A DNA stretch of 64,000 nucleotides from Escherichia coli. Lineage in GTDB: Bacteria; Pseudomonadota; Gammaproteobacteria; Enterobacterales; Enterobacteriaceae. Location of the stretch: assembly GCF_003334785.1 (NCBI RefSeq), contig NZ_QOWV01000003.1. One strand, given 5' to 3'. The notes under the pieces were generated by a model. That model searched no databases and had not been told where the DNA came from. It worked only from the letters and a program-made list of their open reading frames with translations. Positions 30,069 to 30,280 of this stretch are shown here, piece after piece; the first letter of the stretch is position 1; each line of letters starts with the position of its first letter. Both the position numbers and the translations under genes were made by a program.

Positions 30069-30242
30069 ACAATAGCTCTCTTTTTTTGAATATTGTTTTC
30101 TAAGTGACAATTAGCTTGCGACGTGCCGCAAGAAAGATCAACCATCTGGTTGGTTGATATGCGATAGTGATCACAGGACATTTGATAACTTGATGAAAGT
30201 ACAAGTTTTTATCCTTTTTACTGGAGCTTCTAATTAATCGGG

Positions 30243-30260
30243 TTAAGATAGTTATCTTGA
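30243..30260. promoter_or_regulatory. candidate TetR operator: inverted repeat TTAAGATA-GT-TATCTTGA, 20 bp upstream of the TetR start
   Basis: 7/8-matching inverted repeat read from sequence in the divergent SDR/TetR intergenic region; additional palindromes GTGATCAC (30167-30174) and CAACCA...TGGTTG (30139-30156). Confidence 0.35.
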
Positions 30261-30280
30261 AGAGGTCGTGGGGAAGCGTT

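Follow-up and report, generated by a model that had tools for sequence, protein, structure and literature searches.

We predict that an eight-gene accessory operon of Escherichia coli is under dual control, activated by CRP and repressed by full-length YtfA, the TetR-family regulator encoded divergently from it, at a conserved cluster of operator, CRP-type site and operon promoter; we put the probability of this reading at roughly 70%. The switch itself is a textbook one, a specific repressor combined with CRP. The analysis defines a testable candidate operator and promoter for an uncharacterised regulator and for an operon that more than half of sequenced E. coli carry and that K-12 lacks.

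The window (64,000 nucleotides, the whole stretch of DNA that was analysed) is E. coli chromosome, and positions 29000-31200 are 100% identical to many E. coli chromosomes, including that of ATCC 8739, in whose annotation the locus sits between rplI and ytfB. The start codon of the SDR gene reads as CAT on the plus strand and ends at 30068, and the TetR gene opens with an ATG at 30281, so that 30069-30280 is the entire 212-bp gap between them. PGAP gives identical gene ends in ATCC 8739. The initial annotation, which described a 212-bp control region beside a divergent TetR regulator, thus had the right bounds. The operon consists of eight contiguous minus-strand genes, a TetR/AcrR regulator runs on the plus strand from 30281, and family searches agree with the names of the operon genes and the regulator. 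From left to right, the locus contains:

21055-21081, no strand: symmetric, GC-rich hairpin having runs of A and of T, located where rplI and dctP converge
21145-24013, minus strand: TRAP transporter genes dctQ, dctM and dctP, contiguous with the operon
24010-26091, minus strand: FAD_binding_2 flavoprotein, 693 aa, fumarate reductase / aspartate oxidase-like
26088-27629, minus strand: fused family-I CoA transferase, 513 aa, an intact ORF in the window
27639-28421, minus strand: enoyl-CoA hydratase/isomerase family protein, by family search
28425-29267, minus strand: xylose-isomerase-like TIM barrel (AP_endonuc_2), sugar-phosphate-isomerase-like
29277-30068, minus strand: SDR oxidoreductase, first operon gene (NCBIfam PRK12745, 417 bits; annotated "3-ketoacyl-ACP reductase")
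30069-30280, no strand: 212-bp control region that separates the SDR-led operon from the divergent TetR gene
30281-30928, plus strand: TetR-family regulator, 215 aa, TetR_N plus TetR_C_29, the full-length form of the K-12 pseudogene ytfA

The hairpin at 21055-21081 has a 12-bp stem (AAAACGCCGACC-ATT-GGTCGGCGTTTT) and is likely a bidirectional terminator that closes both the operon and rplI.

Of 5426 complete E. coli genomes, 3134 have the control region, each as a single copy, and its alleles fall into three classes. About 58% of E. coli and many Salmonella carry the operon, which also occurs in Klebsiella, Lelliottia and Leminorella. Comparing positions 29909-30526 of the window with K-12 MG1655 (4427618-4428095; L020), we found that K-12 has a deletion that runs from within the SDR gene to within the TetR gene. 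What is left is a 71-bp SDR remnant and a 402-bp 3' fragment of the TetR gene, the pseudogene ytfA, and yjfZ occupies the place of the operon. Because of this deletion the operon, its regulator and the control region are missing from the reference strain, and the operon is consequently absent from standard regulatory databases. In the literature on the ytfA locus, on TetR_C_29 and on the gene set, we found nothing on function, operator or pathway; the sole mention that we found is a census that lists ytfA as variably present (PMC6790063). The loss of the whole control region from K-12 fits the absence of papers on the locus beyond this census.

We assembled 14 orthologous loci that share the divergent SDR/TetR arrangement and the five-enzyme core (the latter seen only partly where contigs are short), at TetR identities of 57-99%; a scan of genome contigs for such loci yielded 10. 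The set covers several Escherichia alleles, E. whittamii, E. albertii, Klebsiella spallanzanii, Salmonella, Leminorella, Lelliottia and Entomohabitans, together with five more distant contigs; the distant loci come from metagenomes. We left out L007 and L009, homologues at 34% identity that lie in unrelated contexts and do not carry the motif described below. The five-enzyme core, consisting of the SDR, the AP_endonuc_2 TIM barrel, the enoyl-CoA hydratase, the CoA transferase and a FAD_binding_2 protein of about 690 aa, is constant (L012-L019). The transporter is swapped, being of the TRAP type in Escherichia and of the MFS type in Salmonella, Leminorella, Lelliottia and others, and a flavodoxin is added in three distant loci. 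The neighbourhoods also vary: an islet between rplI and ytfB in Escherichia, Salmonella and Lelliottia, the vicinity of hydrogenase genes in Leminorella and the vicinity of allantoin genes in one further locus (L014). In the distant group, intergenic sequence outside the operator is unalignable. A MAFFT alignment places the invariant columns of the intergenic region in four clusters, namely GA.CAACC/GTTGGT in the operator, T..G...TC in the CRP-type site, one A and one T towards the operon, and T-A-x-x-x-T towards tetR. These clusters correspond to the following elements:

30113-30118, minus strand: predicted weak -10 hexamer CAAGCT of the operon, with a predicted start near 30106
30136-30141, minus strand: predicted operon -35 hexamer, TTGATC, which falls within the operator's left arm (TTGATC in 13/14 loci, TTGTTC in 1)
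30137-30158, no strand: candidate TetR (YtfA) operator ATCAACCA-TCTGGT-TGGTTGAT, dyad at 30147/30148
30160-30175, no strand: CRP-type site TGCGA-TAGTGA-TCACA, matching TGTGA-N6-TCACA at 9/10 positions, centre 30167.5
30244-30249, plus strand: predicted tetR -10 hexamer TAAGAT (T176, A177 and T181 invariant), overlapping the third repeat discussed below

The initial annotation listed three palindromes in the control region and held that at least one of them is likely the TetR operator. This stands for CAACCA-N6-TGGTTG, which is present at 30139-30156, extends to perfect 8-bp arms, is conserved in all 14 loci and travels with the TetR gene; it does not stand for GTGATCAC or for TTAAGATA-GT-TATCTTGA, neither of which is conserved as a palindrome. 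On statistics alone the repeats are mildly enriched, which is suggestive and not decisive. Specifically, when the 212 bp were shuffled 5000 times with dinucleotides preserved, an inverted repeat having arms of at least 8 and a spacer of at most 8 arose in 2.8% of trials, and at least five repeats with arms of at least 6, as many as the region has, arose in 0.6%. With at most one mismatch, CAACCANNNNNNTGGTTG occurs once in the 64-kb window, against 0.18 occurrences expected. The decisive evidence is conservation, and it supports only the first palindrome. ATCAACCA-N6-TGGTTGAT is the only palindrome conserved across 14/14 orthologous intergenic regions, which are mutually related in sequence and do not amount to 14 independent observations. 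Within it, GA.CAACC (30136-30143) and GTTGGT (30149-30154) are invariant, and the sole E. coli 10-mers found with at most two mismatches in all loci lie in 30133-30157. The motif occurs in one or two copies per locus and is confined to the SDR/TetR intergenic region; elsewhere in the operon regions we found neither AACC-N8-GGTT nor AACC-N4-GGTT, and no extra operators near the transporter genes. Where a second copy is present in L017 (AACCAACC-ATTC-GGTTGGTT), it lies between the first copy and the SDR gene, over the predicted -10 and +1. The TetR gene is the only regulator gene that accompanies the motif through these differing neighbourhoods. Thus, ATCAACCA-N6-TGGTTGAT is the best candidate for the TetR operator.

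The palindrome can be read in a second register, CAACCA-TC-TGGTTG at 30139-30152, because TGGTTGGTTG is a 4-bp repeat; the alternative dyad then falls at 30145/30146, within TCAACCA-TC-TGGTTGG. Counts of exact cores, with AACC-N8-GGTT in 12/13 loci against AACC-N4-GGTT in 7/13, mildly favour the N6 register, and symmetry counting is ambiguous, the two dyad registers scoring 78 and 81 of 96 pairs.

In the regulator itself, TetR_N (PF00440) covers residues 19-61 with E = 3e-14, the ligand domain TetR_C_29 is complete with E = 4.4e-30, and the AF2 model is a confident all-helical TetR fold (pLDDT 92) whose top matches are TetR structures. In the structure search DIP1788, of unknown function, is nearest, followed by E. 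coli RutR at TM 0.72-0.73, with the fatty-acid/acyl-CoA regulators FadR and PfmR lower; the sequence search gave a similar list of neighbours. The orthologues keep the recognition-helix segment CSKQTVYHH nearly unchanged, and the closest homologue beyond them, at 37% identity, has a different one, so that the near-invariance of the putative DNA-reading segment parallels the invariance of the candidate operator.

Since RutR is, among characterised proteins, the one structurally nearest to the local TetR protein, a different regulator such as E. coli RutR might be thought to bind the conserved palindrome. The RutR box is the 16-bp TTGACCAnnTGGTCAA, arranged 7-N2-7 (PMC2475637), which the register TCAACCA-TC-TGGTTGG resembles: of the 14 consensus positions, 9/14, among them 4 and 13, are matched by the 16-mer at 30138-30153, which falls short of a RutR box. 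Real RutR ChIP sites match the consensus at just 7-13/14 positions (PMC2475637). However, the invariant bases are CAACC/GGTTG and not TGACC/GGTCA, the N2 register is the one that is less often exact among the loci, and the motif migrates together with the local TetR gene. We consider binding by RutR or another such regulator quite improbable; because the invariant bases differ from the RutR consensus, the resemblance is better read as family likeness than as RutR control.

The palindrome might also act as RNA, its hairpin and a T-rich run on the operon strand forming a leader attenuator or terminator. A terminator scan does flag it on the minus strand, its fold reaches -12 kcal/mol (z = -2.35), and in the distant group a TTTTTTT run follows it directly. 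Yet only 3/8 stem pairs are G-C, other bases break up the T run in E. coli (CTTTCTTG), and the bases of the arms are invariant where an RNA stem would be expected to co-vary. Such an element would further require a promoter upstream of the CRP-type site, and no conserved sequence provides one. An Rfam search of the region returned only a chance-level viral match (E = 0.75) and no known RNA element. We regard an RNA role as exceedingly improbable and retain the palindrome as a candidate protein-binding site.

The second palindrome, GTGATCAC, is indeed present at 30167-30174. It makes up the spacer and the right half-site of a CRP-type element, which the initial annotation overlooked. In other Escherichia alleles it changes to ATGATCAC or GCGATCAC, whereas the half-sites TGCGA and TCACA are invariant, which assigns it to the CRP-type site; in the distant loci the spacer is entirely different. 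The CRP-type core, with 8-10/10 matches, lies 0-1 nt from the operator in 14/14 loci. This conserved element is likely a CRP activation site of the operon, as judged from its conservation and placement. The whole 64 kb contains just two CRP-type sites; the other, located between yjfY and rpsF at 19399-19414, resembles TGTGA-N6-TCACA with 1 mismatch (TGTGATGAACTTCAAA). An element at 30187-30196 (ATAACTTGATGA), about 27 bp from the CRP centre in the direction of tetR, has an A at 30187 and a TG at 30194-30195 that are invariant in 12/12 aligned intergenic regions; it is too distant from the tetR -10 to be a -35.

The third palindrome, reported as TTAAGATA-GT-TATCTTGA at 30243-30260, is correctly placed and imperfect, its arms pairing at 7/8 positions; the perfect arms are just 6 bp long (AAGATA/TATCTT, 30245-30258). 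Were it the operator, it would autorepress tetR, and its position over the tetR -10 is the classic one for autorepression. But the inverted symmetry is missing from other E. coli alleles, from E. albertii, Salmonella and Klebsiella, and from the rest of the set, and all that other alleles and genera keep of the sequence is T-A-x-x-x-T of the -10, which reads TATGAT in relatives and TGnTATAGT, an extended -10, in the distant group. We read the third repeat as an allele-specific coincidence over the predicted tetR -10. With GTGATCAC varying between alleles around fixed CRP half-sites, we hold it highly improbable that the operator is either of these two repeats. A further repeat, CTTGCG-N6-CGCAAG (30115-30132), is specific to this allele and was dropped.

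A scan of the region for consensus sigma-70 promoters returned none, and we therefore infer the promoters from conservation; the lack of a strong sigma-70 promoter on the operon side is expected of an activator-dependent promoter. Exactly 17 bp past TTGATC, across a spacer that is unalignable, lies a hexamer with A2 and T6 in 14/14 related loci (columns A45 and T49, both invariant in the alignment). It takes the forms CAAGCT, CATCTT, CATTTT, CATCGT and, in one locus, TAAGTT, a very weak -10 with 2-3/6 matches. In every locus the order in the direction of the operon is the same: CRP core, operator, TTGATC in the operator arm, 17 bp, CAnnnT. Measured from the predicted start, the operator is centred at -41.5 and the CRP-type site at -61.5, a value that shifts to -60.5 in the distant group.

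The operator and CRP-type site are 63-78 nt from the start of the SDR gene (32 nt for the extra copy in L017), and the operator is 118-348 nt from the start of tetR. The insertion in Entomohabitans lies on the tetR side only and leaves the operon side untouched, which ties the operator to the operon side. The candidate operator and CRP-type site thus keep their distance to the operon start and not to tetR. The insertion, in Entomohabitans teleogrylli (L006 3700-3960), is a GC-rich stretch of about 210 bp between the CRP-type site and the tetR promoter that doubles the intergenic length, and it may be a repetitive extragenic element. For its part, tetR probably has its own promoter about 100 bp to the right of the operator, and its control from this operator is unlikely. 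Because the operator is placed at the operon promoter and not at the tetR promoter, a shared control region with TetR autoregulation is not supported.

A different promoter can be drawn on the same sequence. With a -10 of GATCTT at 30139-30134 and a start near 30127, CRP would be at about -40.5, a class II position, and the operator would cover the spacer and the -10. This fits nearly as well as the class I arrangement: GATCTT has A2, T3 and T6 of a -10, and AAAGATC is conserved. In the distant group, however, it would put CRP at -39.5, and it leaves unexplained the conserved CAnnnT 17 nucleotides from TTGATC. We judge class II geometry possible and on the unlikely side. With either geometry, the candidate repressor site overlaps the predicted core promoter beside the activator site.

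Protein binding, start site, class I geometry and ligand we infer as follows. The weak leftward operon promoter (-35 TTGATC at 30141-30136, 17-bp spacer, -10 CAAGCT at 30118-30113, start near 30106) would depend on cAMP-CRP bound at TGCGA-N6-TCACA, whose centre at 30167.5 falls at about -61.5, the class I position. Full-length YtfA would bind ATCAACCA-N6-TGGTTGAT as a dimer or as two dimers, from about -52 to -31, where it would cover the -35 and occupy the gap separating CRP from RNA polymerase. With YtfA over the -35, the operon would thus stay shut as long as inducer is absent. We expect the repressor to be released by a pathway-related ligand, be it the acid that is imported or the CoA thioester of that acid.

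Two other features of this sequence were noted. GATC (Dam) sites occur at 30136-30139, at the edge of the operator and the -35, and at 30169-30172, at the centre of the CRP-type site. The operator GATC is kept in 10/12 distinct operator sequences, probably for no other reason than that it belongs to the recognition or -35 sequence. An FNR-type site suggested by eye was rejected, since its TTGAT/ATCAA halves have the wrong orientation and spacing.

The proposed arrangement can be set beside characterised systems. As in the pairs TetR-tetA, AcrR-acrAB, RutR-rutA-G and NemR-nemA, a regulator with a TetR_N helix-turn-helix and a ligand domain is encoded divergently, within about 200 bp of its target, and a palindromic candidate operator of about 20 bp lies over the predicted core promoter of the target. 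The half-sites have the core AACC...GGTT, which is similar to GACC...GGTC in the RutR box. Unlike these type I pairs, the locus has an operator sequence and spacing of its own (8-N6-8 or 7-N2-7), the candidate operator lies off the regulator's own promoter, which makes classic autorepression unlikely, and the C-terminal domain, TetR_C_29, has no characterised member.

The lacP1 promoter with LacI is the textbook case of a class I CRP promoter combined with a specific repressor. The operon promoter predicted here is likewise weak, has a 9/10 CRP core that would lie near -61.5 and would be gated by a pathway-specific repressor. In contrast to lac, where the repressor site lies over +1, the candidate repressor site is between CRP and the -35, the start is a predicted one, and the repressor is of the TetR type and not the LacI type.

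The initial annotation also proposed that the substrate of the operon or its CoA ester is the inducer. This is a reasonable, putative assignment. The structural neighbours of the regulator include both a small-molecule binder, RutR (uracil), and an acyl-CoA binder, FadR, and the structure search singled out no ligand class. With the acyl-CoA-responsive TetR regulators Bacillus FadR, Thermus PfmR and KstR2 the protein shares sequence similarity through about residue 155 and a similar fold, and the operon, as in such systems, contains a CoA transferase and an enoyl-CoA hydratase. However, the FadR score is 46 bits against a cut-off of 200, all such scores are far below the family cut-offs, and RutR and DIP1788 are structurally closer to this regulator. 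The KstR2 label on some orthologue records is an automatic name and was not taken as evidence.

As for the pathway, the enzymes suggest CoA-dependent processing of a hydroxy acid. The nearest solved relatives of the TRAP binding protein, 4N8Y and 4X8R, bind galacturonate or glucuronate. The AP_endonuc_2 TIM barrel has 3qc0 and 3ju2, of unknown function, as its nearest solved chains, and the FAD_binding_2 flavoprotein has no PDB relative at E<=1e-10. We tentatively suggest, at low confidence, that YtfA senses a gut metabolite, a hexuronate-like sugar acid or its CoA thioester, and that the operon encodes an undescribed CoA-dependent, probably reductive, sugar-acid pathway. If this is true, the operator is a handle for finding the inducer. 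A reporter on the region, or purified repressor with the 22-bp site, would allow a direct screen for the inducer and hence for the pathway substrate. The CoA transferase, intact at 513 aa in the window, is annotated as frameshifted in the ATCC 8739-derived record NZ_CP022959.1 (L001 9090-10630), which bears on the choice of strain.
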